Shown: positions 13,733-38,918 of the stretch, piece after piece
Position numbering within the stretch: the first letter of the stretch is position 1
How the letters are laid out: the number at the start of each line of letters is the position of its first letter
UHGV virus genome: UHGV-1370948
Direction: 5' to 3' (one strand)
From: a virus
DNA length: 64,000 nt
Notes under the pieces: model-generated
What the model saw: the letters and a program-made list of their open reading frames with translations, nothing else
Told to the model about the DNA's origin: nothing
Databases searched by the model: none
Program-made: the position numbers and the translations under genes

Positions 13733-13815
13733 GCAAACAAAGCAGTCTGGTTGACTGCGGCCGAGGAAGACGTCTTATCCGGCAGAGAGTGGTTCGATTC
13801 CGCTTGTTTGCGCCA
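13733..13815 (+). tRNA. tRNA-like gene with encoded CCA (7/7 acceptor stem, D-arm, T-arm AGTGG-TTCGATT-CCGCT); anticodon loop carries ~7 extra nt
   Basis: Acceptor gcaaaca/tgtttgc, D-loop tctggttga, discriminator G + CCA at 13813-13815. Confidence 0.45.
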
Positions 13816-13851: not shown

Positions 13852-13925
13852 TACCCAATGCGACAAAACGGTAAGTCGAGAGGATGCTGAGTCCGATGAT
13901 GCAGGTTCGAGTCCTGCTTGGGTAA
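13852..13925 (+). tRNA. tRNA-like gene (7/7 acceptor tacccaa/ttgggta, D-arm cgac/gtcg, T-arm GCAGG-TTCGAGT-CCTGC), weak anticodon stem; no encoded CCA
   Basis: Folded by eye; anticodon loop tgctgag would give CUG (Gln) but position 33 is G. Confidence 0.4.
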
Positions 13926-14128
13926 CTTATCTAAGATGATGTGATTCCATACATCACTTAGTGTCGAGGTCTAAATGGTGCGGCCATCAACCGCATAAAC
14001 AGCCATTAGACCCGAGCCACAAGCCTCGTCTGGCACTAACGTAAAGTGCAAGTGACGTGAAATTCAGGTTGAACGGCCAGAAGAGTAGCGTTGCGAACCA
14101 TATAAATTAAACTACAAAGAGAAAACAC

Positions 14129-14740
14129 ATGTCTGAAGTCAAAAAAGTTATTACCGTAGCTGAGCGTTCCACTAAAGCACTGGTTAAAGTTGTTGCTGAC
14201 GGCCAAAAGCTGTTCGCTGATCTGGCCGCTCTGTCTCAGTCAACCGTAACTCTGACTGAAGAAATTGAATTTAAACAGGGTCAGTTGGCTGATATCGAAA
14301 ACCAGATCGCTGCCTCCGAGCGCGAATCCAAAGCCCAGCTGCGTCTGCGTGTAATCGAAAACGAAGACAAGGTTCTGGCCGAGCTGATGAAAGCACGCGG
14401 TTATGCCGTTATCACTCACGCTGATCTGGATGCACTAAACTCCGACCTGGTCGCGGCCAAAACCGACAACGAGTACGCAGTATCCGAAGCGCGTGAAGCT
14501 GGTTATCAGGCTGCTGCTGCTAAATTTGGCGCTGAGAACCGCGATCTGGTATCCCAGCATAAAGTTGAGCTGGCGGAGCACAAAGCCCAGGCTACTGCTA
14601 AAAACCAACGCATCTCCGATCTGGAAGCACAGGTTGCAGAGCTGCGCGGTCAAATTACCGCAGAGCGCGAAACCCGCCTCGAAATCGCCAAAGCTGATGC
14701 CGGTCGTGCAGGTGTTGTAGTTAACGCCGGTAAGAACTGA
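14129..14740 (+). CDS. hypothetical coiled-coil protein (Ala/Glu/Lys-rich), likely highly expressed
   Basis: 203 aa; consensus TIR; bracketed by hairpins at 14749-14768 and 14868-14888. Confidence 0.5.
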   Translation: MSEVKKVITVAERSTKALVKVVADGQKLFADLAALSQSTVTLTEEIEFKQGQLADIENQIAASERESKAQLRLRVIENEDKVLAELMKARGYAVITHADLDALNSDLVAAKTDNEYAVSEAREAGYQAAAAKFGAENRDLVSQHKVELAEHKAQATAKNQRISDLEAQVAELRGQITAERETRLEIAKADAGRAGVVVNAGKN

Positions 14741-14867
14741 TTGTGGCCGTAGCCTCTTCGGAGGCTACAGCTTAAAGACTGATGGCGACATTGGCCTTTA
14801 AGCTGTACTTCGACCCACAGCAACCATTGAGCATCACGATAGACACTTTTTAGAGCAGATAATTAAA

Positions 14868-14888
14868 GGAGCCTCGCGGCTCCTTTTT
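14868..14888 (+). terminator. rho-independent terminator
   Basis: ggagcc-tcgc-ggctcc + TTTTT. Confidence 0.6.
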
Positions 14889-14970
14889 GCTATTTTTAAA
14901 ATAAGTAATGATTTACTTATCCAATGCAGTTATATTTATTGCGACACCTAACCATTTGAAAGGAATCAAA

Positions 14971-15738
14971 ATGGGTACATCACGCAAACATGCGCGTAAG
15001 GTAGCGCGTAAAGCAGTAAAAGAGAATCGTGCGTTCCGCGGCCGTCGTGTTGATTACGTTATTGTCGATGAGCTGACCGACGCTCAGACCCCACGACCAA
15101 AGCGAGACAATACGCCAGTTGAGGCTCGTAACGAGGCTCAGGCGCATTATCTTATCAGCATCGAAAACAAGCCTCTGACGTTCGCCACCGGTGAAGCCGG
15201 CTGCGGCAAAACGTTCCTTGCCACGGCTGTCGCCGCGCAGAAGCTGTTGGATAAAGACGTCCGCAAAATCATCGTCACTCGCCCCGTATTGCAAGCTGAC
15301 GAAGATCTGGGCTTCCTTCCGGGCGATGTGGGTGAGAAGTTCGCCCCATACTTCCGCCCCGTCTATGACGTTCTCCAGAAGCGTCTGGGCGCATCCTTCC
15401 TCGAATACTGTCTCAAGCCAGAGATTGCCAAAGTAGAAATCGCCCCGTTCGCTTACATGCGTGGCCGGACGTTCGAAAACGCAGTGGTTATTCTGGATGA
15501 AGCGCAAAACGTTACACCGTCACAGATGAAGATGTTCCTGACCCGCATGGGTGAGAACGTTACGGTTATCGTGAACGGCGATGTGACGCAGTGTGACCTG
15601 CCTGGTAATAAAGAGTCCGGGCTATCCGACGCACTGCGCCGCTTTAAACCAAACGCGCACGTTGGGTTGATTGAGTTTGAAGCCGACGATTGCGTCCGCT
15701 CTGAACTCTGCAAAGTGGCTTTAAATGCCTATCAATAG
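14971..15738 (+). CDS. phoH: PhoH-family ATPase
   Basis: Walker A TGEAGCGKTFLA; start chosen at ATG 14971 after AAAGGA. Confidence 0.8.
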   Translation: MGTSRKHARKVARKAVKENRAFRGRRVDYVIVDELTDAQTPRPKRDNTPVEARNEAQAHYLISIENKPLTFATGEAGCGKTFLATAVAAQKLLDKDVRKIIVTRPVLQADEDLGFLPGDVGEKFAPYFRPVYDVLQKRLGASFLEYCLKPEIAKVEIAPFAYMRGRTFENAVVILDEAQNVTPSQMKMFLTRMGENVTVIVNGDVTQCDLPGNKESGLSDALRRFKPNAHVGLIEFEADDCVRSELCKVALNAYQ

Positions 15739-15748
15739 GGATATTGAA

Positions 15749-16270
15749 ATGACAAAAGTTAAATTACCGCAGTACCAAAGCATTAAAATCGTGGAAGCGG
15801 CTGAGATTGCGAAAATCGAGGGGCAGACAATGCTGTTATCCTTCCGCAAGCATGTGGCAAAAGTCGAAGTAGATCAGACTTATCTCGACAAGCATCAGCC
15901 TCAAGTTGGTGGATATTTCGTCCGCTATGAAAACGGTTATGAGTCCTACTCGCCAAAAGGGCCGTTTGAATCGGGCTATTTGTCAGTCGAAACCACTATT
16001 CACGCCGCCAGGGTAGGTGCATCTTTTGGCATCGCAATTGAGATGCTGAAAGACGGCCATCGCGTCGCTCGCAAAGGCTGGAACGGCAAAGGTATGTTCT
16101 TGCGCATGGTGTCAGGCAAACAGTACGACGTCGCTTGCGGCATTGCTCGTGATCTGGAGCTGGCGCCCTGGATTGGCATGAAAACAGCTGACGGGAAATT
16201 TGTGCCATGGCTGGCATCCCAGACTGACATGCTGGCCGAGGATTGGGTAATTGTGGAGATGGTGCCGTGA
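15749..16270 (+). CDS. hypothetical protein
   Basis: ORF 15725..16270 trimmed to internal ATG. Confidence 0.4.
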   Translation: MTKVKLPQYQSIKIVEAAEIAKIEGQTMLLSFRKHVAKVEVDQTYLDKHQPQVGGYFVRYENGYESYSPKGPFESGYLSVETTIHAARVGASFGIAIEMLKDGHRVARKGWNGKGMFLRMVSGKQYDVACGIARDLELAPWIGMKTADGKFVPWLASQTDMLAEDWVIVEMVP

Positions 16271-16512
16271 AAGACCAGCACACTAAAATCAAAGGCTATC
16301 GTGATCTGTCGGCCGAAGAGATCGCGCTGATGAACGAGGGAAAAGACCTGGCTCAGAAGGTAGGCGCCTTTATCGAAAAGCTAGAAGCCGCGGAGTTCGC
16401 ACAAACCAGCGATCAAACTCCAGACAAACGCTGGCTGGCCATCGGCAAAACTGACCTGCAGAAAGGCTTTATGGCCGTAATTCGCAGCATCGCAAAACCG
16501 ACCACTTTTTGA
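16243..16512 (+). CDS. hypothetical protein
   Basis: 89-aa ORF. Confidence 0.35.
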   Translation: MGNCGDGAVKDQHTKIKGYRDLSAEEIALMNEGKDLAQKVGAFIEKLEAAEFAQTSDQTPDKRWLAIGKTDLQKGFMAVIRSIAKPTTF

Positions 16513-16519
16513 GGCTGAT

Positions 16520-16729
16520 ATGACATCAGAGCAATTTGCATATTGGCTTCAGGGATTCGTCGAGCTGGGCGGTCAGATCCCAACGGAAGCACAGTGGGAT
16601 AGCATTAAAGATCACCTGAAAACGGTGTTTGAAAAAGTGACCCCGCCTGTTCAGACGTCTAGTATCGGCGTACTGGCGTCAATGCGTGGTGGCCCCATTG
16701 GTCAAAGCATCACATCTTTATCTTGCTAA
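16520..16729 (+). CDS. hypothetical protein
   Basis: 69-aa ORF. Confidence 0.3.
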   Translation: MTSEQFAYWLQGFVELGGQIPTEAQWDSIKDHLKTVFEKVTPPVQTSSIGVLASMRGGPIGQSITSLSC

Positions 16730-16737
16730 GGAAAAGC

Positions 16738-16983
16738 ATGAAAATCGTTATTTATGGAAAGGACAGCTGCTCTTACTGCAAACGTGCGGTAGAGCTGGCC
16801 AAGCAGTTAAAATCTCAGGGTCATGGTGACTATGAGTATATCGATATCGTTGAAGCTGGCATTGATGCCGCTGCGCTGGGTGAGTTAGTGGGGAAGCCGG
16901 TGCGAACGGTTCCGCAGATCTTCGTCGAGGGCGAGCCTATCGGCGGCTACACGGAACTGGTTACTTTAACCTCCATCCTGTAA
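16738..16983 (+). CDS. glutaredoxin (NrdH/Grx-like)
   Basis: MKIVIYGKDSCSYCKRA - CxxC redox motif. Confidence 0.7.
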   Translation: MKIVIYGKDSCSYCKRAVELAKQLKSQGHGDYEYIDIVEAGIDAAALGELVGKPVRTVPQIFVEGEPIGGYTELVTLTSIL

Positions 16984-16987
16984 GACA

Positions 16988-17012
16988 AAGGGGCCATTCG
17001 GCCCCTTTTTTC
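16988..17012 (+). terminator. rho-independent terminator
   Basis: aggggcc-attc-ggcccct + TTTTTT. Confidence 0.7.
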
Positions 17013-17078
17013 TTTGTGGACACACACAAAGAAAAGAGACTAAATTAGCTCTAAATTTAGCACTATTTAGAGGTGATT

Positions 17079-17330
17079 ATGTTTACTGAAACTGTTCTAG
17101 CCAAGCACACATCTTCCATTAGCGAGTTTAAAAAGAACCCTTCTGCCGCTATGAGCGAGTCTAATGGCGAGCCTGTGGCTGTACTTAGCCACAATAAACC
17201 TGCTTTTTACTGCGTCCCACCAGCACTGTTTGCTCTTATGATCGACCATATTGGCGACCAGATGCTTCTTGAGAAGGCCGTGGGTAGGCTGGACGATGAA
17301 GAGGTTGAAGTCAGCCTGGATCAGCTGTAA
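17079..17330 (+). CDS. Phd/YefM-family antitoxin-like protein (orphan)
   Basis: 84 aa; followed by a 12-codon ATGA-overlapped stub (17329..17367) where a toxin gene would normally sit. Confidence 0.45.
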   Translation: MFTETVLAKHTSSISEFKKNPSAAMSESNGEPVAVLSHNKPAFYCVPPALFALMIDHIGDQMLLEKAVGRLDDEEVEVSLDQL

Positions 17331-17484
17331 TGAGTAGTGGTTTCAAGGTAAAAATCATCAATGATTAACAGTCGACTCTATAGTTCTCACAATGTCCGCA
17401 TAATCGTAATATACTAATCCTGTTAGTGATTTAATCTACCTACCAAACCGTGGGCAACACATTCTATTAATCAGGAAAACGCAG

Positions 17485-19037
17485 ATGACCAGCCTGCAAC
17501 AACGCGCCGAATTACACCGTCAGATATGGGCTATTGCGAACGAGGTTCGCGGTGCCGTTGACGGATGGGACTTTAAACAATACGTCTTAGGGGCGCTGTT
17601 TTACCGTTTTATCAGTGAGAACTTCACCAGTTACATCGAAGCCGGTGATGACAGTGTTCAGTATGCCGGAATGGCTGACAGTGATATTGGTGATGAGATT
17701 AAGGACGATGCGGTCAGAACAAAGGGGTATTTTATCGCTCCAAGCCAGCTGTTCTGTAATGTGGCGAAGCGTGCCAATACGAATGACCACCTGAATGCTG
17801 ATTTAAACAGTATCTTTGTTGCGATTGAAAGCTCTGCATCCGGTTATCCGTCAGAAGCCGCCATTAAGGGACTGTTTGCTGATTTTGATACGACCAGTAA
17901 CCGGCTGGGCAGTACCGTTAAAGAGAAAAATATCCGGCTTGCTGCGGTACTGAAAGGGGTTGAGGGGCTGGCTCTCGGGGATTTTGATGCCCATCAGATT
18001 GACCTGTTCGGTGATGCCTATGAGTTTCTGATATCCAATTATGCCGCCAATGCGGGTAAGTCCGGCGGTGAGTTCTTTACCCCGCAGCATGTCTCTAAGC
18101 TGATTGCTCAGCTGGCCATGCACGGACAGACCTCCGTCAATAAAATCTATGACCCTGCGGCCGGTTCAGGTTCTCTGCTGCTTCAGGCCAAGAAACACTT
18201 TGATAATCACATTATCGAGGACGGTTTCTTTGGTCAGGAGATTAACCATACGACCTTTAACCTGGCGCGTATGAATATGTTCCTGCACAACATCAACTAC
18301 GACAAGTTTGATATCCGGTTAGGGAACACATTACTGGCCCCTGAATTTAAAGACCAGAAGCCGTTTGATGCGATTGTGTCTAACCCGCCGTACTCCGTGA
18401 AATGGGTGGGCAGTGATGACCCGACCCTGATTAACGATGACCGCTTTGCACCTGCGGGGGTACTGGCCCCGAAATCTAAAGCTGACTTTGCATTCGTACT
18501 TCACGCCCTGAATTACCTGTCTGCGAAAGGCCGTGCCGCGATTGTCTGTTTCCCCGGCATTTTCTACCGTGGCGGAGCTGAGCAGAAAATCCGACAGTAT
18601 CTGGTTGATAACAACTATGTGGAAACCGTGATATCACTGGCCCCGAACCTGTTCTTCGGTACCACCATTGAGGTTAATATTCTGGTGCTGTCAAAGCATA
18701 AGGCCGACACCAAAGTACAGTTTATCGATGCCAGCAGTCTGTTTAAGAAAGAGACCAACAACAACGTTCTTACCGATGCCCATATAGAACAGATTATGGC
18801 GGTGTTCGACAGTAAAGCCGATGCAGACTATCTGGCTAAATCTGTTACTGCTGAAGCCATTGCAGCTAATGATTACAACCTGTCTGTCAGTAGCTACGTG
18901 GAAGCCAAAGATACCCGCGAAATCGTCAACATAGCCGAACTGAATGCTGAGCTGAAAAAGACCGTCACCAGAATAGACCAGCTTCGTACTGATATTGATG
19001 CGATTGTTGCTGAGATTGAAGGTAGCGAGGTACAGGC

Positions 19038-19041
<4 letters not shown>
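17485..19041 (+). CDS. hsdM: type I restriction-modification methyltransferase subunit HsdM
   Basis: N6-adenine MTase motif IV VSNPPYS, AdoMet motif [10 protein letters not shown]. Confidence 0.9.
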
Positions 19042-20255
<1,214 letters not shown>

Positions 20256-20380
20256 CATAAACGCCCCTGCCAGAGAGAATATCTGGCTGGCAGGGTTGTT
20301 TGCATAGCTATAGCCCGATATTCACACTCTAAGGGCATCACCGTTTCATTCTTCGCAGCATAACGACAGCAGGGAGCAGC

Positions 20381-23300
20381 ATGACACAGCAGACCAGAAC
20401 CATCGCCGAATCCAATAACTTCATCGTGCTGGATAAATACGTTACAGAATGGGAAGCCGGTGACCGCTACCAGAGTGAGTCGGAGTTAGAGCGCGAGCTG
20501 ATTCAGGACTTGCGTAATCAGGGCTATGAGTTTGTGCCTGATTTAACCTCCCAGTCGGCGATGCTGGCGAATGTCAGGGTGCAACTTCAGACACTGAATC
20601 AGGTGGTGTTTAACGAAGGCGAATGGCGACGTTTTACCGAGCAGTATCTGGATAATCCGAGCGATACGATAGTCGATAAGACCCGTAAAATTCACACCGA
20701 TTACATCTGTGACTTTACCTTCGATGACGGACGACTGGAAAACATCTACCTGATTGACAAGAAAAGCCTTGTCCGTAACAAGGTGCAGGTTATCCAGCAG
20801 TTTGAGCAAACCGGCAGCCATGCCAATCGCTATGATGTCACGGTGCTGGTTAACGGCTTACCTCTGGTGCAAATCGAACTGAAAAAGCGGGGCGTAGCGA
20901 TTCGGGAAGCCTTCAATCAGATACACCGCTACAGCAAAGAGAGCTTTAATACCGAGAACTCCCTGTTCAAATATTTGCAGCTCTTCGTGATTTCAAACGG
21001 AACCGATACCCGTTACTTTGCCAATACCACAAAGCGGGATAAAAACAGCTTTGATTTCACCATGAACTGGGCGCGGTCTGATAACACCCTGATTAAAGAC
21101 CTTAAAGACTTTACCGCCACCTTCTTCCAGAAACACACCTTACTCAATGTTCTGTTCAACTACACCGTGTTTGATGTCAGCAACAATCTGCTGATTATGC
21201 GTCCCTACCAGATAGCAGCGACGGAGCGGATTTTGTGGAAAATCAACGGGGCTTATCAGGCAAAAAAATGGAGCTCCAGAGAGGGGGGCGGCTTTATCTG
21301 GCACACCACAGGTAGTGGTAAAACCTTAACCAGCTTTAAAGCCGCAAGGCTGGCAACTGAACTGGATTTCATTGATAAAGTGTTCTTTGTGGTTGACCGT
21401 AAAGACCTTGATTACCAGACTATGAAGGAGTATCAGCGTTTCTCACCTGACAGCGTTAATGGCTCTGACAGCACCGCAGGGCTGAAGCGTAATCTGGAGA
21501 AGAATGACAATAAAATCATTGTCACCACAATCCAGAAACTGAACAACCTGATGAAAGGTGAAGCCGATTTACCGGTCTATCAGCAACAGGTGGTCTTTAT
21601 CTTCGATGAGTGTCACCGCAGTCAGTTCGGTGAAGCCCAGAAGAACCTGAAAAAGAAATTCAAACGTTTCTATCAGTTTGGCTTTACCGGTACACCGATA
21701 TTTGTCGGTAAAAATGCCTTAGGGGATGAAGACACCGCCAGCGTATTCGGGGCAGAACTACACTCTTACATCATCACCGATGCTATTCGTGATGAAAAGG
21801 TGCTCAAGTTTAAAGTCGATTACAACGACGTTCGCCCGCAGTTCAAAGAGCTGGAAACGGAAACAGACGAAAAGAAACTCAGCGCCGCCGAGAATAAACA
21901 CGCTTTGCTGCATCCGATGCGGATTAGCGAAGTCACGCATTACATCCTGAAGAATTTCCGTCAAAAAACACATCGGGCATTCTCTGGTGCTACAGGCTTC
22001 AATGCCATGTTTGCCGTCAGCAGTGTGGATGCAGCCAAAGCCTACTATGAAGCGTTCAGAATCATACAGCAGTCGGCTGTTGAACAGGATAAGAACTACA
22101 AGCCTCTGAAGGTGGCGACCATCTTCTCCTTTGCCGCCAATGAAGAGCAGGACGCGGTCGGTGATATCAATGATGAAGGGTTTGATGTCACGGCGATGAA
22201 CAGCAGTGCGCGGGAGTTTCTGGAATCGGCTATCAGTGACTACAATGCCATGTTTAAGGTTAACCATAGTACTGATGGCAACAACTTCCAGAACTACTAT
22301 CGTGACCTCTCTGAGCGCGTCAAAAAGCAGGAAGTAGACCTGCTGATTGTGGTCGGGATGTTCCTGACCGGATTTGATGCCCCGACACTCAATACCCTGT
22401 TTGTGGACAAGAACCTGCGCTACCACGGCCTGATGCAGGCATTCTCCCGCACTAACCGGATTTATAACGCCACCAAAACCTTCGGGAATATTGTCACCTT
22501 CCGTGATTTAGAACAGGCCACAGTGGATGCCATTACCCTGTTCGGGAAGAGCAATACCCGAAGCGTGGTGATGGAAAAAAGTTATGACGAGTACATGGAA
22601 GGCTTCACGGACACGCTTACCGGAGAGGCGCGACGTGGCTTCACAGATATCGTGAGCGAGCTGGAGACGCGTTTCCCGAAACCCGCAGACATTGAGTCCG
22701 AAAAAGAGAAAAAAGCCTTCGTTAAGCTGTTCGGGGAATATCTTCGGGTAGAGAACATACTGCAAAACTACGATGAGTTTACCACGCTGAAAGCGCTGCA
22801 AACTGTTGACCTCAGTGACCCGGTAGCCGTGGAGGCGTTTAAAGCCGGGCACTATCTGGATGATGAGGCTTTCGCTGTGCTCCAGACAGTACGCTTACCC
22901 GCTGAGCGTAAAATTCAGGACTATCGCTCCAGCTACAACGATATCCGTGAGTGGCAGCGCCGTGAGCGTGATGCAAACACCAAAGATAAAAATAGCGTTG
23001 ACTGGGATGATGTGGTCTTTGAGATTGATTTGCTGAAATCGCAGGAGATTAACCTCGATTACATCCTGGGGCTGATTTACGAGCATCATCAAAAGAGTAC
23101 GGATAAAGAGACGCTGAAAGAGGAAGTGAAGCGCTTAATCCGGGCCAGTCTGGGGAACCGTGCAAAAGAGGGGCTGATGGTCGATTTTATCGAACAGACG
23201 AATCTCGATGCCCTGCCGGGCAAAGAGGGCGTCATTGAAGCCTTCTATACCTTTGCACAACAGGCTCAGCAGCGTGAGGCAGAAGCCTTAATCAAAGAGG

Positions 23301-23503
23301 AAAACCTGAATGAGGACGCCGCCCGGCGCTACATCAGAAATTCTCTCAAGCGCGAATATGCCACGGAGAACGGCACTGCGCTGAATGAAACATTACCTAA
23401 GCTCAGTCCGCTGAACCCACAATACAGAACCAAAAAGCAGACGGTCTTTCAGAAGTTCGTGGCCTTTATCGATAAGTTCAAAGGCGTCGGTGGAAGTGTC
23501 TGA
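20381..23503 (+). CDS. hsdR: type I restriction endonuclease subunit HsdR
   Basis: 1040 aa, helicase motifs TGSGKT and DEAH-box FDECHRS. Confidence 0.9.
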
Positions 23504-23598
23504 TACATCTGATATCACATGGGAGGCTTCGGCCTCCTGATTAAGTTCTCAGGATTTCTCTCCGCCATATGAAACCATACGGAATAGTTGTGCTGTAG

Positions 23599-23889
23599 GT
23601 GATTAAGTCATTTGCGAACAAGTGTCCAACTTATTTGCTAATAGGGGATCAGATAAATGCGAATGCACAGGTATTGGCAAAGCGTATGGAGTCTCTTGGT
23701 GCCTTGACAATGCCGAAAAATAGGCTCTCACTTAAACACAATTGCTACAAGATTAAGCTAAAGAATGACGGTTATCGTCTGGCCTATACGGTCAGAGACG
23801 ACGAGAACGGGGAAGTTAGCGTTGTTGCCGTGGATAGACGTGATGAAATTTACAACGAATTGAAGAAAAGGCTTGATGCTGATGTTTGA
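23599..23889 (+). CDS. HigB/RelE-family toxin-like protein
   Basis: MIKSF N-terminus; C-terminal GYRLAYTVRDDENGEVSVVAVDRRDEIY matches RelE/HigB beta-sheet core. Confidence 0.45.
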   Translation: MIKSFANKCPTYLLIGDQINANAQVLAKRMESLGALTMPKNRLSLKHNCYKIKLKNDGYRLAYTVRDDENGEVSVVAVDRRDEIYNELKKRLDADV

Positions 23890-24202
23890 TAGATTATCCC
23901 CAGAGCAAATTCGCGAGTTCCTGCTGGAACAAGGGTTTTTGAGAGTACGCCAGCTCGAAGACAGTAGTTGGATCGGTGTGCTAAGGCTTGCTTTTACAAC
24001 GTCGGTCTGTATGGATATTGACGAATTTTCGCCCTTTCGTTATCGCTGGTGTTTCGCTGACCCAGCAGAGGCAAACCACTTTTTCGAGACGGCCGTAGAT
24101 TATGACGAAGCGCCGACGAAGCGCGATTCGTTGAAGGGGCACCGGTATCGTGGTGAGCCGCTTCTGCGTGAAAAGGATGAGTTCGGCTTTGATAAGTGGT
24201 AA
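23876..24202 (+). CDS. hypothetical protein (possible non-canonical partner of HigB-like gene)
   Basis: Overlaps HigB-like stop; no recognisable HTH. Confidence 0.3.
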   Translation: MLMFDRLSPEQIREFLLEQGFLRVRQLEDSSWIGVLRLAFTTSVCMDIDEFSPFRYRWCFADPAEANHFFETAVDYDEAPTKRDSLKGHRYRGEPLLREKDEFGFDKW

Positions 24203-24285
24203 AAACTGTGGTTTTACTTGCACTGCGCTACAGTATAGAATGACAAGCGTTGTACATAGCCAGCAAAATGCGGGCGGTAAAAATT

Positions 24286-24810
24286 ATGAAAGAATCAATC
24301 ACAAAAATTGCAATGGTTTTGGCGCTTGCCTTATCCGGGATAACGCATGAATCGTGCGCTAAAGAAACTGTATGCGCTCAGCACATCGTTGCCCCTGGCA
24401 TCGGCGTATCGTTCAGCGAGGAAGTTATGTCAAACATCAATAAGATGAATGAGGTAACTGCAGAAGGTCGTGAACTTTACGCGAGAATTGATGAACTTGC
24501 AGAACGCGACTATGAAGCGGCAAAAATGGCTGCTGAGGGGATGCGTGCAGACATCATCGGAGCCTTGGCTATTGCTGAATTTTTATTCCAGGCACTGCCA
24601 GATGTTTCGGTGATCCGTTCATTCCCCAAAGACTCGATGCAGTACAAACTTTGCAGAGCGGTCGCAGAAGCACGACACAATGCAAAAAATCTGGACAACC
24701 TGTTAAATCAGATACTGAACGTCAGCCCGTATCGTGAGTCAAACATCAACCACGATGCACTGACATTACTAGCGGAACGTGGTACAAGGGCTGCGGCTAA
24801 ATGGCATTGA
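24286..24810 (+). CDS. secreted hypothetical protein (signal peptide)
   Basis: MKESITKIAMVLALALSGITHESCA signal-like N-terminus. Confidence 0.4.
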   Translation: MKESITKIAMVLALALSGITHESCAKETVCAQHIVAPGIGVSFSEEVMSNINKMNEVTAEGRELYARIDELAERDYEAAKMAAEGMRADIIGALAIAEFLFQALPDVSVIRSFPKDSMQYKLCRAVAEARHNAKNLDNLLNQILNVSPYRESNINHDALTLLAERGTRAAAKWH

Positions 24811-25217
24811 TTGTCGAATTTAACCCGGATACAAGATCCGAGTTTTTAGACCCAACTTTCAAAAAGTACCCCGATTTAGAAAGCCAACTCAAAGCCGAAT
24901 TTATTTATTGTAAGACGAAAAACGTCACAACGAATATTTTCGGCAACGATGCCATTTTCACTTTCCCCTCTTACGCAGTAGAGGCACAGTTGTCTCGCGT
25001 TCATATCAAGCTGCCGAGCGAAGCGCCGTGGCCCCACGGCATACCCGATCGTCAAAAGAAAAGTAACACTTACCTGGTTTACGCCCAGCATATGTGGAAC
25101 CTTTCGAGCTATTCCATTCTGGCTCTTGTAACTCCAGCGCATGACCTAATGAGTGCAGCAAACACTCAACTAATTTCTCGCTTTTCAGCCTACGCAGAGG
25201 CTTTTCACTCCCGTTAA
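24801..25217 (+). CDS. hypothetical protein
   Basis: 138-aa ORF. Confidence 0.35.
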   Translation: MALIVEFNPDTRSEFLDPTFKKYPDLESQLKAEFIYCKTKNVTTNIFGNDAIFTFPSYAVEAQLSRVHIKLPSEAPWPHGIPDRQKKSNTYLVYAQHMWNLSSYSILALVTPAHDLMSAANTQLISRFSAYAEAFHSR

Positions 25218-25324
25218 TCTGCAAGACAGAGTCCCATAAAGACCATCAGATTTCATCAAAACGCCCTTTTGTGATTCCATACCTATAGAGTATGGAATCA
25301 CAGGAAAAAAACGGTTATTCTGGG

Positions 25325-25372
25325 TTGACCTTATAGCTAAAATACCGTTAAATACTGTATATACATACAGTT
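25325..25372 (+). promoter_or_regulatory. sigma70-like promoter (TTGACC-17-TTAAAT) with near-consensus LexA box TACTGTATATACATACAGTT immediately upstream of integrase ATG
   Basis: CTGT-N8-ACAG SOS box at 25353-25372; -35 at 25325-25330, -10 at 25348-25353. Confidence 0.6.
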
Positions 25373-25374
25373 AC

Positions 25375-26421
25375 ATGGAGGCGGCGATGTTAAATTCGTT
25401 CGAGATCGATAAAGCTTTGGAAAATTGTTCTGCTGAAACAGTTCAATATCTCCAGCGCTGCCAAACCATGACCGGCTCACAAATGATGGCCATGGATGCC
25501 GATTCGAAATTCAGTGAAGCCTTTATGTTTTTCACGCGTTTATCACTCCTTGTGACTCGGCGGCGTCCTGAGCTGGGTGTTCACTGCATTCTCATTCACG
25601 CCATGCCGGTTATCGGCGACAAAAAAGTTTCGGACATCAACCGCCTCACAGTTAACAGACTAATTAATGCCTTGGTGTTGGATGGCAAGTTAGTACAAAG
25701 CCGGCGCGTTTTTTCTGTTTTAAAACAGTTCCTTGGGTGGTGTGAGTTCCAGGGCGTGATCGAGACTTCCCCACTTGGAGCGATGTCTCTTAACAAAGTT
25801 GCTGGCGGACTGAAGCCAAGACCTCGGGAGCGTGTGTTGTCGGATGATGAGCTGGAAAAATTTTGGCACATGTGGGACTTTGCCGATGTTTCAGAGAGCA
25901 CGCGTTGGGCCGCGCGTTTCGTGCTCTGCTCAGCCAGACGGCCGGATGAAGTGCTCCGGGCTAAACGAGCTGAATTCGATCTCAATAATGATGTATGGAA
26001 TCAGGGTAGTAGGAATAAGTCTGGTCGTGAACATTCACTACCCATTAGCCCCATAATGAAGCTGTGCATTAATAAAATGATGGCCGCAGCCGGGAATAGC
26101 GAGTGGCTAGTTCCCTCCCCAAAGAATGAGACGAAGCCTGCATCCAAGGTTCTGATAGCTCAGGCATCAAGAAGAATTATGAGTAGAGATTATCTTTCCG
26201 ATAACATCCCGGCCCCCTTCGAAATCAGAGATTTACGAAGAACGGCCAGAAGCACACTCTCTCGACTTGGTGTAGAGCAAGACGTGGCTCGTAAAATCAT
26301 GAACCACAGTCTTGAGGGAATAGATCGCGTCTATGACAGACACGACTATCTTGACCGAATGTCCGAGGCAATGTCAGCATACTCTGAATTCTTAATTGAA
26401 ACATGTAAGATCAATCAGTAA
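25375..26421 (+). CDS. int: tyrosine site-specific recombinase/integrase
   Basis: C-terminal catalytic R..HxxR..Y pattern (RDLRRTARSTL..HS..Y). Confidence 0.8.
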   Translation: MEAAMLNSFEIDKALENCSAETVQYLQRCQTMTGSQMMAMDADSKFSEAFMFFTRLSLLVTRRRPELGVHCILIHAMPVIGDKKVSDINRLTVNRLINALVLDGKLVQSRRVFSVLKQFLGWCEFQGVIETSPLGAMSLNKVAGGLKPRPRERVLSDDELEKFWHMWDFADVSESTRWAARFVLCSARRPDEVLRAKRAEFDLNNDVWNQGSRNKSGREHSLPISPIMKLCINKMMAAAGNSEWLVPSPKNETKPASKVLIAQASRRIMSRDYLSDNIPAPFEIRDLRRTARSTLSRLGVEQDVARKIMNHSLEGIDRVYDRHDYLDRMSEAMSAYSEFLIETCKINQ

Positions 26422-26716
26422 TACCTAACTTACTCTTCAGAGCATCATTTTCATTCTTTATTTTTTTAACAAATTCATAGATTTCGGGGAATCTCTCGGA
26501 TAAGTACATCATCATAAAATCGTCTGGCGGCGCACCAACAGCTCTCGCGAATGGGATGACCTTGTCTAACGAAAGATGAGCACGGCCAGATTTGATGAGA
26601 GAAATGTTGTTAGCGTTCTCAAATCCAACTTCTTTTGCAATCTGAGCTTGTGTTTTGCCACAGGTGAGCATCGCTGCGGTCATAAACGGACGGTAACGCC
26701 CTTTGGGTTCGTACAT
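26411..26716 (-). CDS. XRE/Cro-type helix-turn-helix regulator
   Basis: QAQIAKEVGFENANNISLIKSG HTH; convergent with and overlapping integrase 3' end. Confidence 0.55.
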   Translation of the reverse strand: MYEPKGRYRPFMTAAMLTCGKTQAQIAKEVGFENANNISLIKSGRAHLSLDKVIPFARAVGAPPDDFMMMYLSERFPEIYEFVKKIKNENDALKSKLGITD

Positions 26717-27322
26717 GTTATAGTCTGCCTTGTATTGAATTATTTTAGTAAGTAAGTAACCACATACTATTAAATCATTTTAGTAAGTAATCACATATTT
26801 ACGTATTGTTCAAGACTAAACCACTAAACCAAAAATGTAAACCCACACCGCCAACTTTGGGCTACGGCGCTAAATAACCACAAAATAGAATAAAAATCAA
26901 TAGGCTAAGTCTGCTTTTTTGATGCAAATTTGTTGTAATCTTAAAAAAATAATAGTAACTTTGACATGAATCATTTAAGACATACTAATAAGCAATAAAC
27001 TATTTAATGGTATTAACATGAATGCAATTTTGAACTGGATGTCGACGGCGACAAAACTATCAGCAATATCTTTGAGTGACCAAATCGGAGCCGACATCAT
27101 TTGCGAACTGGGCGCGAAAGATGGACACATAGCAGGCTCCGATGATCTTTTTTTCCATATTAATCATCTAGATAAAGATTTCGCTTTAGTACAGGGAATT
27201 TCGAACTACACTCTCATTTGCATTCACACCAACTAAGATTTACCCTTCCTTTTTGGCTTTATACTTTCATTGATTGTGATTATCATACCCATAAATAATA
27301 AGCATTTATTTATGGGTATGTC

Positions 27323-29311
27323 ATGAAAAAGACTTCAGTTAAAGATATCACTAAGTTTCGCGAGGCGATTAAAAACGTCGTTTCAATGCTGGTAGCACGC
27401 AACATCCCCGTCATAGAACGTGGAGATAAGGCATATGTTGAATACAACAAAGCCGGCGAACCTCTCTGCATCTGCATACCATCAATACCCGACGACGCCA
27501 GCGACAAGTTCCTGATGGCGGTACGCGGATTCATCGATCACGAAGTCGCTCACGTCCTTTTCACAGACAGTACGAAAGCCACCAGCTTCGTCTGGAACGC
27601 CGTAGAAGACACCTTCATTGAGCGAAAAATGGGGGAGATGTTCAAAGGCTCCAGAGCAAACCTCATCAACACACAAAAGCATGTCATCGATACGGTTTTC
27701 ATTCCTAAAGAAATGGAGGCCATTGCTGAAAAGCTGGGCGATCAGACCCGTATGTTTATGGAGTTCTATCTGGTTCCCGTGCTGCGTGCTTGGAATGATC
27801 AAACGCCGTTCATCGACTACATGGAAGACCGCTGGGAGCGCGTTAAAGAGCCTGTATCAATCCTGATTAAACATGGCGTCGATAAGATGATCCCCAAAAT
27901 ATGCAGCACGAGCGATAGTGTGGCAGTGGCCTCGCTAATTGTCCGACTACTGGTCGACAAGCCAATGGAAAGTGAAGACCCAGGTGAATCAAAGGAAAAT
28001 GGGGAAGGTAAAGGAAAGTCTTCAAGCGAATCGTCTAATGACGATTGCGGTGATGGCGATCTACCCTGGCATGGCGATGATGAGCCTGAAGATAGTGAGG
28101 AAAAGGATTCCCCAGGATCAGTTGATAACGAAGAGGGGGAAACCGAATCGGCCGACGACGGAGATGGCGGCTCTTCACAGTCAGAAGAAGACAAAAAGGC
28201 TGATGGTATCGGAGACGAACCTGGCGACCCGGAAAGCGGAGCGAGGGATATACCAAAACCAACGAAAGGTGATCTGGAAAAGCTGGAGTCAACCAAACTT
28301 CCAAAAGGCGCCATGGATATGTCTATGGAAGGGGCAATGAAGATGATTATTTCCAGCGAATCCGAATTGTCGACCGGCTATCGTCCGTATGAGCGCACTT
28401 ACGACTTTATGGGGAGGCTTGAGCACGCATCGGAGTTCTTCAGAAACGTTCTGGCCACTTCGCCGAAAGGGTTCCACATGTACGGTGACGCTGATAACTA
28501 CATGGTGATCCCAAAACATGAGGCCGTCTTCAATAAGAATATTAAGCCTCTAATTGGCGATGACATCGTCGCGACACTCGCTAAAGACCTTGAGCGAACG
28601 ATAGCCAGCCAGAACCGCAATCAGTTTGTTCCAGGTCAGCGTCGCGGCCGACTGCATGGCCCAAGTCTGTATCGCCTGTCCGTCGATGATGACCGAGTTT
28701 TTCGCAAGCTGGAGGTCAAACGCGCGGTCAACTCATGCGTGCAGATTGTTATTGATATGTCTGGCTCCATGAGAGGGCAAAAAATCAAGACAGCTTGTGC
28801 AGCAGCCTACACACTGGCGGATGCATTGGCGCGTATCAACGTGAAAACTATGATAACCGGCTTCACAACATCTTCTCTGGCGATGCCTGGGAAGTCCGAG
28901 TTTAACCGCTCTGAAGCGCTTTTTCTGCCAATTATCAAGGGGTGGGAGACGCCGATATCCAGCAAACAAACGATATGCAACCTAGGTGCTCTCGCAGGTA
29001 CGATGATACTGGCTGAAAATATCGATGGAGAAAGCATACTGGCCTTGCTTCAACATTTCTCTGGCCGCCAGGAAGATCGCAAAATCATGATTGTGCTTAG
29101 TGACGGAAGCCCAGCGGCTCAGGGGCGTGGTTTGACTGGCCACCTGAAAATGGTCACAAAACAGATTGAGCAGGATACCGATATCCATCTTCTAGGGATC
29201 GGGATTTTGACAGACGCTCCGCGTCACTTCTACCGCGACAACATCTGTCTGAACAATGTTGGTGATTTAGCCGAAACGCTCATCAAGCAAATGCAACGCC
29301 TACTTTCGTAG
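27323..29311 (+). CDS. CobT-like protein: acidic low-complexity middle + C-terminal von Willebrand A (MIDAS DMSGSM) domain
   Basis: 662 aa; D/E/S-rich region aa ~210-310; vWA motif VQIVIDMSGSMRG. Confidence 0.6.
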   Translation: MKKTSVKDITKFREAIKNVVSMLVARNIPVIERGDKAYVEYNKAGEPLCICIPSIPDDASDKFLMAVRGFIDHEVAHVLFTDSTKATSFVWNAVEDTFIERKMGEMFKGSRANLINTQKHVIDTVFIPKEMEAIAEKLGDQTRMFMEFYLVPVLRAWNDQTPFIDYMEDRWERVKEPVSILIKHGVDKMIPKICSTSDSVAVASLIVRLLVDKPMESEDPGESKENGEGKGKSSSESSNDDCGDGDLPWHGDDEPEDSEEKDSPGSVDNEEGETESADDGDGGSSQSEEDKKADGIGDEPGDPESGARDIPKPTKGDLEKLESTKLPKGAMDMSMEGAMKMIISSESELSTGYRPYERTYDFMGRLEHASEFFRNVLATSPKGFHMYGDADNYMVIPKHEAVFNKNIKPLIGDDIVATLAKDLERTIASQNRNQFVPGQRRGRLHGPSLYRLSVDDDRVFRKLEVKRAVNSCVQIVIDMSGSMRGQKIKTACAAAYTLADALARINVKTMITGFTTSSLAMPGKSEFNRSEALFLPIIKGWETPISSKQTICNLGALAGTMILAENIDGESILALLQHFSGRQEDRKIMIVLSDGSPAAQGRGLTGHLKMVTKQIEQDTDIHLLGIGILTDAPRHFYRDNICLNNVGDLAETLIKQMQRLLS

Positions 29312-30841: not shown

Positions 30842-33210
30842 AGGCATTAATGGTACGCACCGATTTTTCTCTTGGTGAATCGGCGCTGAAAGCAAGCCGC
30901 GTAGCGAAGGCTGCGAAAGAGTTAGGTTATTCAGCCATTATCAGCGCAGACACAATGAGTCTGGCTTCAATCATCCCGCTGCAGCAGTCGGCTGGTGATG
31001 ACCTGGCTGTTATTTGCGGCGTCCGTCTGGTCATTAGTGACAATCCGCTTTATGAAGGCATGGTCAGAAAAGCCAAAGAGGAAGGTACAGAGATTCCGGT
31101 ATGCAAGCCTGGTCGTCTGTACAGCTTCACAGCGTTGATAAAGAACGATGAAGGGTATAAAGATCTGTGTGAGCTGATGACGTTGGGCAACCGCCGCGAA
31201 CAGTTTTACTTTTTCCCGCGCATCTCGTTGGAGCAGCTGGCCGAAACGTATTCAAAGGGCAACATCCTTCTACTGACGTCTGATCGCGATAGCATATTTC
31301 ATCGGCAGGACTTCGTTAAAATCCTGACTAAATTGCTGGAGGTTGGTGGGCGTGGCAACTTCTACAGCGTTGTGTATCCGATTGCTACGCCTCTCTACGA
31401 TCAGTTGAACATGAAGGCGATGAAGGTGGCTAATGCGCTTAAAATCGCCCCTGTTGCGTTCTATCCAGCTTATTACGAGAAAGAAGAGGACGCAGACCTG
31501 CGCGACATTGCGCATATGGTTATCAATAACATCAAAACGGATCAGCCATATCGTTTTCACATCCCACACCAGCGCGACAACTCAATCCAGAACCGCAAGC
31601 ATTTGCTGGTTCGCTTGATGGAATTCTCGAAACGCATGGGTATCGAGGGTATTAGTTCCGCGATGGTTAACGAGACTCAGGACGAAATCATTGCGGCGTG
31701 CAGCTGGCGCTGGCATGAGATGCCGGTCAGTCTGCCAGTTATGGCGGAAGATGAGGGTGATTCGTTGACGCGAATGGCGGCAGAAGGATTGAAGCGTCGT
31801 TTAACAACGCTTGAATTTGGTTGGAAGCCACCAGCAGAGCAGTATCAGGTTTACATCAACCGTTTACGTTATGAGTTGAGTGTTCTGAAAAAGCTGGGAT
31901 TTTGCGGCTACTTCCTGATGGTTGAAAATCTACTGTCATGGGCGCGTAAACAGGATATCCCGGTCGGGCCGGGTCGCGGATCGTCCGCCGGTTCACTTGT
32001 TGCGTGGGCGATTGGGATCACCAACATCGACCCGCTACGCCACGGTCTCCTGTTTGAGCGCTTCATCAACCCTGAACGTCTGGATTTGCCTGACGCGGAT
32101 CTGGACTTTAGCCAGGCGCTCCGCCCCCGCGTTCTCGAATATCTTGAAGAGCATTACGGCGAAAAATATGTGGCTGGCATTCCAAACTTCTCTTATCTGG
32201 GTATGGCGTCGGCACTACGTGACACGGCACGTATCTACGGCGTGTCTACCGAAGATATGGCGGTATCTAAGCAGTTGAAGCAATTCGATGATGAGGGATT
32301 ATCTCTTGAAGAGACTCGTGAGCAGCTGGGCGCCCTCGACAAATACGCGAAAGCAAACCCGGAAGCATTCGACGCCGCGTGCAAACTCCAGTCACTGATG
32401 CGCAGCTATGGTAAGCACGCCGCGGGTGTCATCGTTTCTGGCGTACCACTGACTGAGCGAACACCAGTTGAATTACGCAACGGGGTGCGCTGTATCGCGT
32501 TTGACAAGCGTTTCTGTGAATCTATGGGGCTTATCAAGCTGGACGTGTTAGGGCTGGCTACGCTCGATCTACTGGCTCTCGCTAAACGCTACATCAAAGA
32601 GAACGAGGGGATCGACGTTAACCTCGACGCAATCCCTCTCGATGATAAACGCGTCCTTGAGGGTATGGCGTTGGGTGAAACAACTGGCGTGTTCCAGTTC
32701 GAGTCTGGCGGCATGAGAAACCTGCTTAAAAACCTTGGAAGCGGCATCAAACCAATGTCGTTTGAAATGGCCGTCGCCACTACCGCGCTATATCGCCCAG
32801 GCCCAATGCAGTCCGGCATGATGGATACCTACGTCAGCGTTGCGCGTGGTTATGAGGACGCTCACTCACTTCACCCAAGCCTTGACGAATTGACCAAAGA
32901 AACCAACGGGGTTTTGGTCTATCAGGAACAAATCATGAAAGCGTCGCAGATCCTCGCCGGCTTCTCTCTGTCGGAAGCAGATATGGTAAGGAAGGCGATT
33001 GGTAAAAAAGACATCGAGAAGATGAAAAAGATTGGTGCCGACTTTTCAGATCGTGCGCAGCTTGGTTGGTTGGAAGTCCAGACTGACGACGGCCAGATTG
33101 TCACTGTTCATCGCGCCGCGCTTCATCCGTGCTCTGATGGTAAGAAGCGCACTGTCGAGCAAGCCATGAAAGAAGATGCCGACATTATTGAATTTGACAC
33201 CTCTAAGTAA
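30838..33210 (+). CDS. dnaE: DNA polymerase III alpha (DnaE-type) N-terminal part: PHP + palm/thumb
   Basis: GPGRGSSAGSLVAWAIGIT and catalytic LPDADLDF motifs. Confidence 0.85.
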   Translation: MKALMVRTDFSLGESALKASRVAKAAKELGYSAIISADTMSLASIIPLQQSAGDDLAVICGVRLVISDNPLYEGMVRKAKEEGTEIPVCKPGRLYSFTALIKNDEGYKDLCELMTLGNRREQFYFFPRISLEQLAETYSKGNILLLTSDRDSIFHRQDFVKILTKLLEVGGRGNFYSVVYPIATPLYDQLNMKAMKVANALKIAPVAFYPAYYEKEEDADLRDIAHMVINNIKTDQPYRFHIPHQRDNSIQNRKHLLVRLMEFSKRMGIEGISSAMVNETQDEIIAACSWRWHEMPVSLPVMAEDEGDSLTRMAAEGLKRRLTTLEFGWKPPAEQYQVYINRLRYELSVLKKLGFCGYFLMVENLLSWARKQDIPVGPGRGSSAGSLVAWAIGITNIDPLRHGLLFERFINPERLDLPDADLDFSQALRPRVLEYLEEHYGEKYVAGIPNFSYLGMASALRDTARIYGVSTEDMAVSKQLKQFDDEGLSLEETREQLGALDKYAKANPEAFDAACKLQSLMRSYGKHAAGVIVSGVPLTERTPVELRNGVRCIAFDKRFCESMGLIKLDVLGLATLDLLALAKRYIKENEGIDVNLDAIPLDDKRVLEGMALGETTGVFQFESGGMRNLLKNLGSGIKPMSFEMAVATTALYRPGPMQSGMMDTYVSVARGYEDAHSLHPSLDELTKETNGVLVYQEQIMKASQILAGFSLSEADMVRKAIGKKDIEKMKKIGADFSDRAQLGWLEVQTDDGQIVTVHRAALHPCSDGKKRTVEQAMKEDADIIEFDTSK

Positions 33211-37850: not shown

Positions 37851-38918
37851 ATGAAAAAGTCACCATTAGCAGTAGCCATGAAAAAACGTATCGGCGGAAA
37901 TGATGAGATCCAGAAAGTCGAGCAATGGCTGGACACCGGTTTTCCCCCGTTAAACGAAGCCGTTTCTGGTGATCTGGAAGGCGGTCTTCCTTGTGGGCGT
38001 ATTGTGGAGATTTTTGGACCTCCGTCTGCAGGCAAAACTTTCCTCGCAACCCGCGCGATGATTGCAGCGCAGAAGGTCGGAGGTATCGCCGTATTCCTCG
38101 ATCATGAAAACAGTTTTGACGTTGGTCTGGCTGAAGTTATGGGACTTCAATCTGATGAAGATGAAGGTAATTGGGTCTATAAGCAGCCTGACACCTTTGA
38201 GGATGCCATCGACTTGACCGGGCAAATCTTGTCTCTGGTTCGCAAGGAGAGTCTGATCCCAGCTGAAGCGCCCATCGTCATTGTCTATGACTCGCTGGCC
38301 TCAATGGTTCCGCGCCAGAAGTTCGAGAAGTTCGAGAAGATGGCGGATGGCACGGCCAAAGAGAAAGACGAGCTGAATATGAACGACAACACGGCACTGG
38401 CTCGCGCGACTTCGGCAAATCTCCCAACGCTGGCTAAGTGGGCGCAGAAGTACAATGCCTGCCTCATTTTCCTGAACCAGGTTCGTACAAAAATGGGCGT
38501 CATGTTCGGAGACCCTACCACTTCACCAGGCGGCGACTCCCCGAAATTCTACGCTTCCGTCCGCATCAAGCTGGGTGGCGGTCAGTTGAAAGAAGGCGGC
38601 GATCGTGTTGGTCAGCTGGTTAAAGCAGAGTGCGTCAAAAACAAGGTGGCGCCACCGTTCCAGAAATGTGAATGGAACTTCTACTTCGACCCTTCGCGTG
38701 GTCTGGACGTCGTAGAATCGCTTGTAGAGTACATGCTTGATAAGGGATACATTCCGAAGACGTCCACCGGGCGCATCGAGATTGGCGACAAGAAGTATAC
38801 AAAGTCCCAGATCGTCGATATGTACCGCGAGAAGGATTTGAGCGAAATCGTGAAGGCTATTAAGTCGATTCAGGCGAAGATGAAGTCAAAGGACGAATTA
38901 GAGCCAGCTGACGCGTAA
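37851..38918 (+). CDS. RecA-family recombinase
   Basis: EIFGPPSAGKTFLATRAMIAAQK matches RecA Walker A region. Confidence 0.7.
   Translation: MKKSPLAVAMKKRIGGNDEIQKVEQWLDTGFPPLNEAVSGDLEGGLPCGRIVEIFGPPSAGKTFLATRAMIAAQKVGGIAVFLDHENSFDVGLAEVMGLQSDEDEGNWVYKQPDTFEDAIDLTGQILSLVRKESLIPAEAPIVIVYDSLASMVPRQKFEKFEKMADGTAKEKDELNMNDNTALARATSANLPTLAKWAQKYNACLIFLNQVRTKMGVMFGDPTTSPGGDSPKFYASVRIKLGGGQLKEGGDRVGQLVKAECVKNKVAPPFQKCEWNFYFDPSRGLDVVESLVEYMLDKGYIPKTSTGRIEIGDKKYTKSQIVDMYREKDLSEIVKAIKSIQAKMKSKDELEPADA

Follow-up and report, generated by a model that had tools for sequence, protein, structure and literature searches.

A predicted SOS-gated, lox-like recombination module on an SSU5-type phage-plasmid of Klebsiella

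The phage-plasmid P1 carries the simple site loxP by the gene for its recombinase, Cre, and the pair serves both dimer resolution and circularisation. XerCD, ResD/rfsF and TnpI/IRS are further tyrosine recombinase systems that keep their replicons monomeric, acting at cores with spacers of 6–8 bp. To our knowledge, LexA gating of cre has not been described, and we know of no LexA control in the XerCD, ResD/rfsF or TnpI/IRS systems. For the integrons, Guerin and colleagues are said to have found in 2009 that the SOS response induces recombination by the integrase. Integron integrase promoters are overlapped by LexA boxes, and SOS induces recombination (PMC3108266); SOS and LexA also control expression of the ccr recombinases of SCCmec (staphylococcal cassette chromosome mec; PMC5397144); and a LexA-controlled antirepressor on the phage-plasmid N15 is cited in PMC11652158. 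Here we describe a locus in a 64,000-nucleotide stretch of viral DNA (UHGV virus genome UHGV-1370948, referred to throughout as the window), in which a tyrosine recombinase gene, int, lies downstream of a near-consensus LexA operator and a perfect inverted repeat. Positions 25270–26421 appear to form a self-contained site-specific recombination module, made up of a lox-like site, a sigma-70 promoter (P_int) 22 bp downstream of it, and a gene for a two-domain recombinase (Table 1).

The module is Cre/loxP-like in its predicted function and is not a member of the Cre family. As in P1, the host replicon is a phage living as a plasmid, the tyrosine recombinase has no arm-binding domain, and two 13-bp inverted arms surround a short asymmetric spacer beside the recombinase gene; by analogy, the expected roles are dimer resolution and circularisation. 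Unlike loxP, with its 8-bp spacer, the site here has a spacer of 7 bp, and unlike a Cre homologue the recombinase shows no sequence similarity to Cre (a search of the PDB with the family profile returned no hits) and matches its fold weakly (rank 37, E ∼0.05), well behind lambda Int and Tn1549 Int. The short inverted-repeat core with accessory motifs nearby also recalls XerCD at cer/psi, ResD/rfsF of F and TnpI/IRS of Tn4430; unlike these systems, the module is self-encoded and host-independent, its recombinase belongs to a separate protein family, and its accessory elements are undefined.

In its regulation the locus most readily invites comparison with the integron integrases IntI1 and VchIntIA, with which it shares a LexA box over the promoter, a primary recombination site immediately upstream and variable cargo adjacent to it. 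It is nevertheless no integron: the recombinase is of a different family, with no integron-integrase model among its listed matches, a double-stranded palindrome takes the place of attI and attC, each element has one full site and no cassette array, and int is transcribed away from the site, not divergently from an array. Like the LexA-controlled antirepressors (N15 AntC, 186 Tum, Gifsy), the locus has a host LexA box on its own promoter that could sense damage in place of a self-cleaving CI; unlike them it encodes a recombinase, so that any effect on a repressor would have to come about through convergent transcription. The ccr genes likewise place a mobile element's site-specific recombinase under SOS and LexA, but their products are serine recombinases, and what they excise is a staphylococcal chromosomal island; here we are dealing with a tyrosine recombinase on an extrachromosomal, enterobacterial element. 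A literature search (SSU5, pHCM2, pMT1, phage-plasmids; most subscription journals lay outside it) found no description of this site or of LexA control of the recombinase. The regulatory theme is familiar, whereas the recombinase–site pair that it governs here seems not to have been characterised before.

The window is part of a ∼110–115 kb Klebsiella phage-plasmid of the SSU5 supergroup that replicates extrachromosomally. This assignment follows from plasmid identity, virion genes, replication and recombination genes, and gene order. Over the 3.2-kb int region the window is 100% identical to 110–116 kb Klebsiella plasmids typed as non-mobilizable, a typing shared by 137 of the 140 PLSDB records with a match; plasmids of ∼110 kb are the best among the matches listed. 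Among the genes of the identical Klebsiella plasmids are those for terminase, portal, major capsid, tape-measure and tail proteins; CobT/CobS-like, DnaE, SbcCD and RecA/UvsX-like genes are also encoded (CobT, AAA_5 and DnaE domains were detected), and the gene order agrees with that of the SSU5-like phage-plasmid Cyrano (pLF82; OV696614.1). The element thus combines the size (∼100–120 kb) and non-mobilizable type of the supergroup with its siphovirus structural genes and its CobT/CobS-like, DnaE and RecA-like proteins. Klebsiella phage-plasmids of this supergroup, of the pKpn/pCAV kind, have been described (PMC11652158); phage-plasmid types of the group were found exclusively extrachromosomal, and SSU5-like elements are inducible with mitomycin C (both PMC9600943), while ciprofloxacin induces Cyrano (PMC9928086).

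The first-pass annotation of this DNA had reported a near-consensus CTGT-N8-ACAG LexA box between a good sigma-70 promoter and an integrase start codon at 25375. The box, TACTGTATATACATACAGTT, is exactly where and what it was said to be, and agrees with the 20-bp LexA consensus TACTGTATATATATACAGTA at 18 of 20 positions (two mismatches). Nothing else in the window comes within three mismatches of that consensus, and 100 dinucleotide-preserving shuffles yielded no such match at all. The bare CTGT-N8-ACAG core is not rare (two in the window against 0.74 expected, the second, at 31117, being GC-rich and intragenic), and so it is the full 20-mer that carries the weight. Scored with a position-specific scoring matrix built from E. 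coli SOS boxes (training sites 12.4–27.5 bits), the box reaches 28.1 bits and exceeds every training site. A scan of the whole ∼115-kb element with this matrix, which the same annotation had proposed as a check, gave a runner-up of 12.4 bits against a best score of 19.7 bits in 20 shuffles, so that no further LexA site stands above noise anywhere on the Klebsiella element. For the promoter, the hexamers, the 17-bp spacer and their coordinates all stood, but the word ‘good’ did not, and the agreement of the −10 with its consensus suggests a promoter of moderate strength. We infer P_int itself from the hexamers and their conservation: most relatives have TTGATC-17-TAATAT at the same position, with the box beginning at the final T of the −10, which supports P_int as a real promoter. 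The box in the window has the same placement, that predicted for an operator at this promoter. The start codon is probably ATG 25387 rather than 25375, because GGAGG precedes it, the Prokaryotic Genome Annotation Pipeline (PGAP) starts the gene there in an identical plasmid, homologues align from that ATG, and one relative (locus L070) has GTG at the equivalent position with no in-frame ATG upstream.

Table 1. Positions of the features discussed, in window coordinates.
Feature	Position	Strand	Remarks
tRNA-Phe (GAA)	13733–13815		
tRNA-Gln (CTG)	13852–13926		
Mini-site TGTGATTCCATACATCAC	13940–13957	+	exact 13-bp left arm + ATCAC; 14 bp after tRNA-Gln; 11.3 kb upstream of the full site
Semi-conserved A/T-rich motif CAGATTTCATCAAAACGCCCTTT	25245–25269	none	left flank of the site; kept beside unrelated upstream modules
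Perfect 13-7-13 inverted repeat TGTGATTCCATAC-CTATAGA-GTATGGAATCACA	25270–25302	none	candidate lox-like core recombination site
−35 hexamer of P_int, TTGACC	25325–25330	+	5/6 consensus; TTGA among the most conserved columns
−10 hexamer of P_int, TTAAAT	25348–25353	+	after a 17-bp spacer; 4/6 consensus
LexA operator (SOS box) TACTGTATATACATACAGTT	25353–25372	none	overlaps the last −10 base and the transcription start expected at about 25359–25362
Shine–Dalgarno sequence GGAGG	25377–25381	+	5 nt before ATG 25387
Tyrosine recombinase gene int	25387–26421	+	344 aa; core-binding and catalytic domains
XRE-family helix-turn-helix (HTH) gene	26411–26716	−	101 aa; converges on int, 11-bp overlap with the int 3′ end
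RecA/UvsX-like recombinase gene	37851–38918		

Conservation among relatives makes the case for the operator stronger. We collected 63 genome loci and 80 viral loci encoding homologues of the recombinase (counts that are not phylogenetically independent), which fall into clade A, the phage-plasmids (at least 57% protein identity), and clade B, from Rahnella, Pantoea, Erwinia, Xenorhabdus and others (at most 52%). A full CTGT-N8-ACAG box lies 52–55 bp after the inverted repeat in 80 of the 90 clade-A loci, the remainder having a degraded box (four) or none (six). Though redundant, the loci offer 39 distinct promoter contexts; Klebsiella, E. coli, Kluyvera and a Y. pestis pMT1-like plasmid are among their sources, and the divergence of their flanks is too great for megablast to detect them. 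Over these contexts information peaks at TTGA (−35), TAAnAT (−10), TACTGT and ATACAG; the CTGT and ACAG half-sites are fixed, whereas the eight positions between them are variable, as is all the sequence beyond the box. A LexA operator that overlaps a promoter should leave just such a pattern, and we take it as strong comparative evidence that the operator works. The proposal of a near-consensus LexA operator at a tyrosine recombinase promoter is thereby upheld, with both its position and its half-sites kept across diverged relatives. Cyrano has two strong LexA sites: its P_int box (22.6 bits) and a second, TACTGTATGTGTATACAGTA (OV696614.1 89275–89294; 26.2 bits), which precedes CYRAN_98 by 36 bp. 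As the gene for a UmuD-type S24 peptidase, CYRAN_98 is of a classic SOS kind, and the second box therefore serves as an internal positive control, indicating that these elements use ordinary host SOS boxes.

The inverted repeat is conserved too. One such repeat lies upstream of int in ∼139 related loci, almost all of those collected, with arms GATTCCATAC-N7-GTATGGAATC in all 90 loci of clade A and GACTCCAGAC-N7-GTCTGGAGTC in the 49 of clade B; within a protein clade the arms are fixed, and from one clade to the other both arms differ symmetrically, in step with the protein. The spacer keeps a length of 7 bp throughout, exists in 19 distinct variants and is found in both orientations relative to int, even where the recombinases are 97–98% identical. 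The window, for example, has CTATAGA (25283–25289) where its close relatives L066, L067, L068, L073, L147 and L148 have TCTATAG, and the family has four reverse-complement spacer pairs. The spacer might be flipped by template switching at the perfect palindrome. Fixed arms, a variable 7-bp spacer and free orientation fit a simple core site such as loxP or FRT, and make the repeat unlike an attP with flanking arm sites, which would neither show nor tolerate such freedom. The full site is single-copy on both the Klebsiella element and Cyrano. It stands at a constant 22 bp from the −35 hexamer, and it is conceivable, if speculative, that recombinase bound there also influences P_int. Homology to relatives with different upstream cargo starts at ∼25250, close to the beginning of the site's left-flanking motif.

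Two further possibilities concerning the repeat were considered and set aside. An intrinsic terminator is unlikely, as no plus-strand T-run follows the repeat; this role is also disfavoured by the retention of the repeat whether the upstream gene is co-directional (the window) or divergent (Cyrano), and by arms that are conserved in sequence, beyond mere pairing. A half-site within int (GTATGGAATC, 25993–26002) shows no co-variation with the arms across the clades and follows VWNQG codons, clade B mostly having CGG for the Arg; it is a coding coincidence.

The recombinase belongs to the tyrosine recombinase superfamily by domain, catalytic residues and fold. The Pfam catalytic domain PF00589 is found with E = 1.5e-8 (the match to the central domain is weak), and the residues invariant in the family alignment are R184/R185, K211, R281-x-x-R284, H307 and Y316, the usual first His of HxxR being replaced by R281. 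A Pfam search found no arm-binding domain (PF13356/DUF4102) in Int or in any other family member; by contrast, PF13356 is carried by the nearest outgroup hits, P4-type integrases of 27–31% identity. An AlphaFold2 model of Int (predicted local distance difference test, pLDDT, 86.5) finds its best fold match in lambda Int residues 75–356, that is, lambda Int without its arm domain, followed by Tn1549 Int, XerH and IntI4 (rank 27), with lambda Int, Tn1549 Int and XerH at probability 1.00. The homologues form a tight family of 340–380 aa proteins confined to the Enterobacterales, beyond which identity drops sharply from ∼45% to ∼30%. Within this family, the clade-B recombinases sit among ordinary cargo genes, without a LexA box and usually without an adjacent HTH gene. 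Their replicons (loci L009–L063) include large plasmids, namely Pantoea allii plasmid pA (L059), pPANA1 (L060) and an Erwinia rhapontici plasmid (L032); Rahnella relatives lie on long contigs to which no replicon type was assigned. Replication and partition genes were sought near the clade-B genes, and only ordinary cargo was found (GGDEF, methyl-accepting chemotaxis protein, H-NS and TonB-dependent receptor genes). Because clade B has its own co-varying site on other plasmids, the recombinase–site pair is older and broader than the phage-plasmids.

The explanation that we favour, with moderate confidence, is an SOS-gated Cre/loxP-like module on an extrachromosomal phage-plasmid, which resolves or circularises plasmid copies. 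Host LexA, bound to the operator over the −10 and +1, would hold recombinase expression down to a low basal level for as long as the element persists quietly as a plasmid. On DNA damage, activated RecA would bring about LexA self-cleavage, P_int would be freed and the recombinase would rise, recombining directly repeated copies of the site so that plasmid dimers and replication concatemers become monomers; it may also circularise incoming phage DNA, as Cre/loxP does for P1. Demand for resolution would be higher during SOS, with multimers arising from host RecA and from the element's RecA/UvsX-like protein (whose gene, carried by the element itself, provides a source of multimers), and with the phage-plasmid being induced under the same conditions. 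It is conceivable, though unlikely, by analogy with ArgR/PepA at cer, that LexA bound at the fixed 52–55 bp from the core site doubles as an architectural factor in recombination.

Several points weigh against this explanation. That LexA binds, that SOS induces int, that the repeat recombines and that the enzyme serves in resolution are all predictions from sequence, and a simple promoter scan of the window does not call P_int, owing to the imperfect −10 (TTAAAT lacks the A at position 2). The structure of Int, as modelled, is closer to those of lambda Int and Tn1549 Int than to that of Cre. A LexA box is present in none of the 49 clade-B loci and, these and the six boxless clade-A loci taken together, LexA control is not needed for the recombinase itself; a role in resolution leaves it unexplained why the phage-plasmids acquired such control. 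A need for the enzyme in circularisation on infection would be at odds with its repression by LexA in a new host that has suffered no damage. Finally, distant arm-like mini-sites and the variable cargo beside the site (both described below) hint at functions beyond simple resolution.

The alternative that survives best turns on the gene convergent with int. It encodes an XRE-family HTH protein homologous to CYRAN_45, annotated as ‘putative repressor’ in Cyrano. On this account, which we consider rather unlikely, derepressed P_int would feed a lysis–lysogeny switch: read-through of int into the convergent gene, acting by transcriptional interference or antisense pairing, would lower the repressor and link DNA damage to lytic induction, possibly alongside a role for the recombinase. 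The distribution of the arrangement is suggestive. The two genes overlap in Cyrano as well (by 6 bp), and the convergent HTH gene is present in 84 of the 87 clade-A loci tested against 4 of 50 in the boxless clade B; the three clade-A loci that lack it also lack the box. A domain search found no S24 peptidase domain in the HTH protein, and its self-cleavage stimulated by RecA is unlikely given this and its small size; with P_int carrying the sole credible LexA box on the Klebsiella element, and related phage-plasmids being induced by genotoxic agents, an indirect route through P_int becomes attractive. A simple scan saw no plus-strand terminator after int, but the scan is crude and blind to Rho-dependent termination. 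Against the switch, its sole basis is the gene arrangement, the HTH protein is only putatively the master repressor, two loci (L072 and L081) keep the HTH gene while missing the box, and SOS could be coupled to induction by other routes, through an antirepressor, for instance, or through the RecA-like protein that the element encodes. That P_int is a DNA-damage sensor in the fullest sense, one host operator both triggering lytic development by lowering the repressor and supplying a genome-processing recombinase, we regard as unlikely. The presence of this XRE-type candidate repressor, converging on int, does mean that the first-pass annotation's supposition of damage coupling without a CI-type repressor switch is not established. 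Just upstream of the HTH start lie two to three direct repeats of ∼17–23 bp (ATTTTAGTAAGTAAyCACATA; 26733–26800 and 26871–26887), which are candidate operators for the putative repressor.

Directly upstream of the site, at ∼17015–25250 in the window, is a variable cargo hotspot, occupied here by a Phd/YefM antitoxin gene, type I hsdM/S/R genes (17485–23503) and a YafO-family toxin pair (24286–25217). Among Klebsiella relatives with int at least 97% identical, the upstream position is taken by at least six unrelated modules; some relatives have the type I restriction system and others lack it, and two unrelated minus-strand genes may replace the YafO module. Each module ends in a comparable ∼25-bp A/T-rich motif adjoining the repeat. 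Mini-sites, consisting of the 13-bp left arm followed by ATC(A/T/C) (xTGATTCCATACATCx), occur 1–11 kb upstream of the full site and always on the left-arm strand. Besides the one in the window (Table 1; chance expectation 0.02), they are found in Cyrano (OV696614.1) at 37804 and 38816 and in locus L086 at 218 and 1238, and E. coli relatives have comparable motifs 1–3 kb upstream of the full site. The outer bases of these motifs vary in step with the full site on the element that carries them, being TGTG in Klebsiella and AATG in E. coli. One of the two in Cyrano forms the start (MIPYI…) of the small open reading frame CYRAN_38.

Such features could be read as an SOS-gated platform for cargo exchange, loosely integron-like, in which the recombinase inserts, deletes and swaps accessory modules beside the site; the hotspot itself, the shared ends of the modules, the co-varying and uniformly oriented mini-sites, and the established LexA control of integron integrases (PMC3108266) all lend themselves to this. 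We nonetheless think it quite improbable. There is a single full site per element, and in the mini-sites the arm is followed by ATC and not by the full-site spacer, so that they lack the spacer identity needed for strand exchange. The window mini-site lies inside the Klebsiella-conserved backbone (97% identical over 14000–17015) and not at an edge of the variable region, one mini-site is merely the start-codon region of a small open reading frame, and no NCBIfam or Pfam integron-integrase match is listed for Int, which has neither the IntI family membership nor the attI site and attC cassettes of an integron. Mini-sites as cassette boundaries were accordingly rejected, and they lend no support to an integron-like array.

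The first-pass annotation had also proposed that SOS-induced expression couples the recombinase's chromosomal integration or excision to DNA damage. In the data that we assembled, this earlier model has very little left to recommend it. It draws on the annotation ‘site-specific integrase’, on nearest sequence and structure relatives that are phage and transposon integrases, and on a few homologues from contigs of great length, as much as 897 kb. We searched 5,426 complete E. coli genomes, the element itself being from Klebsiella. A conserved 72-bp piece of int gave 149 E. coli plasmid matches and no chromosomal match, and the 33-bp E. coli-type site was found in 206 of the genomes, once in each and always on a plasmid of ∼100–120 kb, never on a chromosome. 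No chromosomal attB, integrated copy or element lying between attL and attR was found in these genomes by megablast, which needs a 28-bp exact word and misses degenerate sites. Integration is unlikely because the gene and the site are matched on plasmids only, because the group is exclusively extrachromosomal (PMC9600943), because Int lacks the N-terminal arm-type domain of lambda- and P4-type integrases, and because the site is simple and symmetric, its orientation free relative to the flanks, unlike an attP with arm sites. The predominantly non-mobilizable plasmid records argue in the same direction. The label ‘integrase’ is therefore a likely mis-annotation, in that it suggests integration, which these elements appear not to do.

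It is hardly credible that the palindrome resembling a LexA box arose by chance or is a vestige, with no regulatory role: partial palindromes are frequent in AT-rich promoter regions, and in some relatives the box is degraded or gone to no apparent effect, but an 18/20 match is not expected by chance in shuffles, its 28 bits exceed each training site, and its half-sites stay fixed around a variable centre over 39 contexts whose flanks megablast can no longer align.

SSU5-type phage-plasmids are common in clinical Enterobacterales, as the 206 E. coli genomes with a site of this type illustrate. Resistance and defence genes are among their cargo, and antibiotics that damage DNA induce them, yet their damage sensing and maintenance have so far been poorly described. 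The locus offers a conserved candidate LexA input, the only strong one on the Klebsiella element, and a specific hypothesis that links SOS to the putative repressor gene. The recombinase–site pair, common to the phage-plasmids and to large plasmids of Pantoea, Erwinia and Rahnella, could be useful as a recombination tool.

Some features elsewhere on these elements deserve mention. In addition to the RecA/UvsX-like protein, Cyrano encodes UvsY, gp32-like single-stranded DNA-binding protein, RuvC, UvsW and SbcCD homologues, a T4-style recombination toolkit on a temperate phage-plasmid; the element's RecA-like protein might conceivably itself promote LexA cleavage. A perfect 15-7-15 inverted repeat, CATACCCATAAATAA-taagcat-TTATTTATGGGTATG (27284–27320), stops 2 bp short of the start codon of the CobT-like gene, the ATG at 27323, and could serve the early/replication operon as an operator or in translational control. 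The segment with tRNA-Gln differs in the otherwise close relative L001, and at the equivalent place Cyrano has Asn, Thr and Ser tRNAs.

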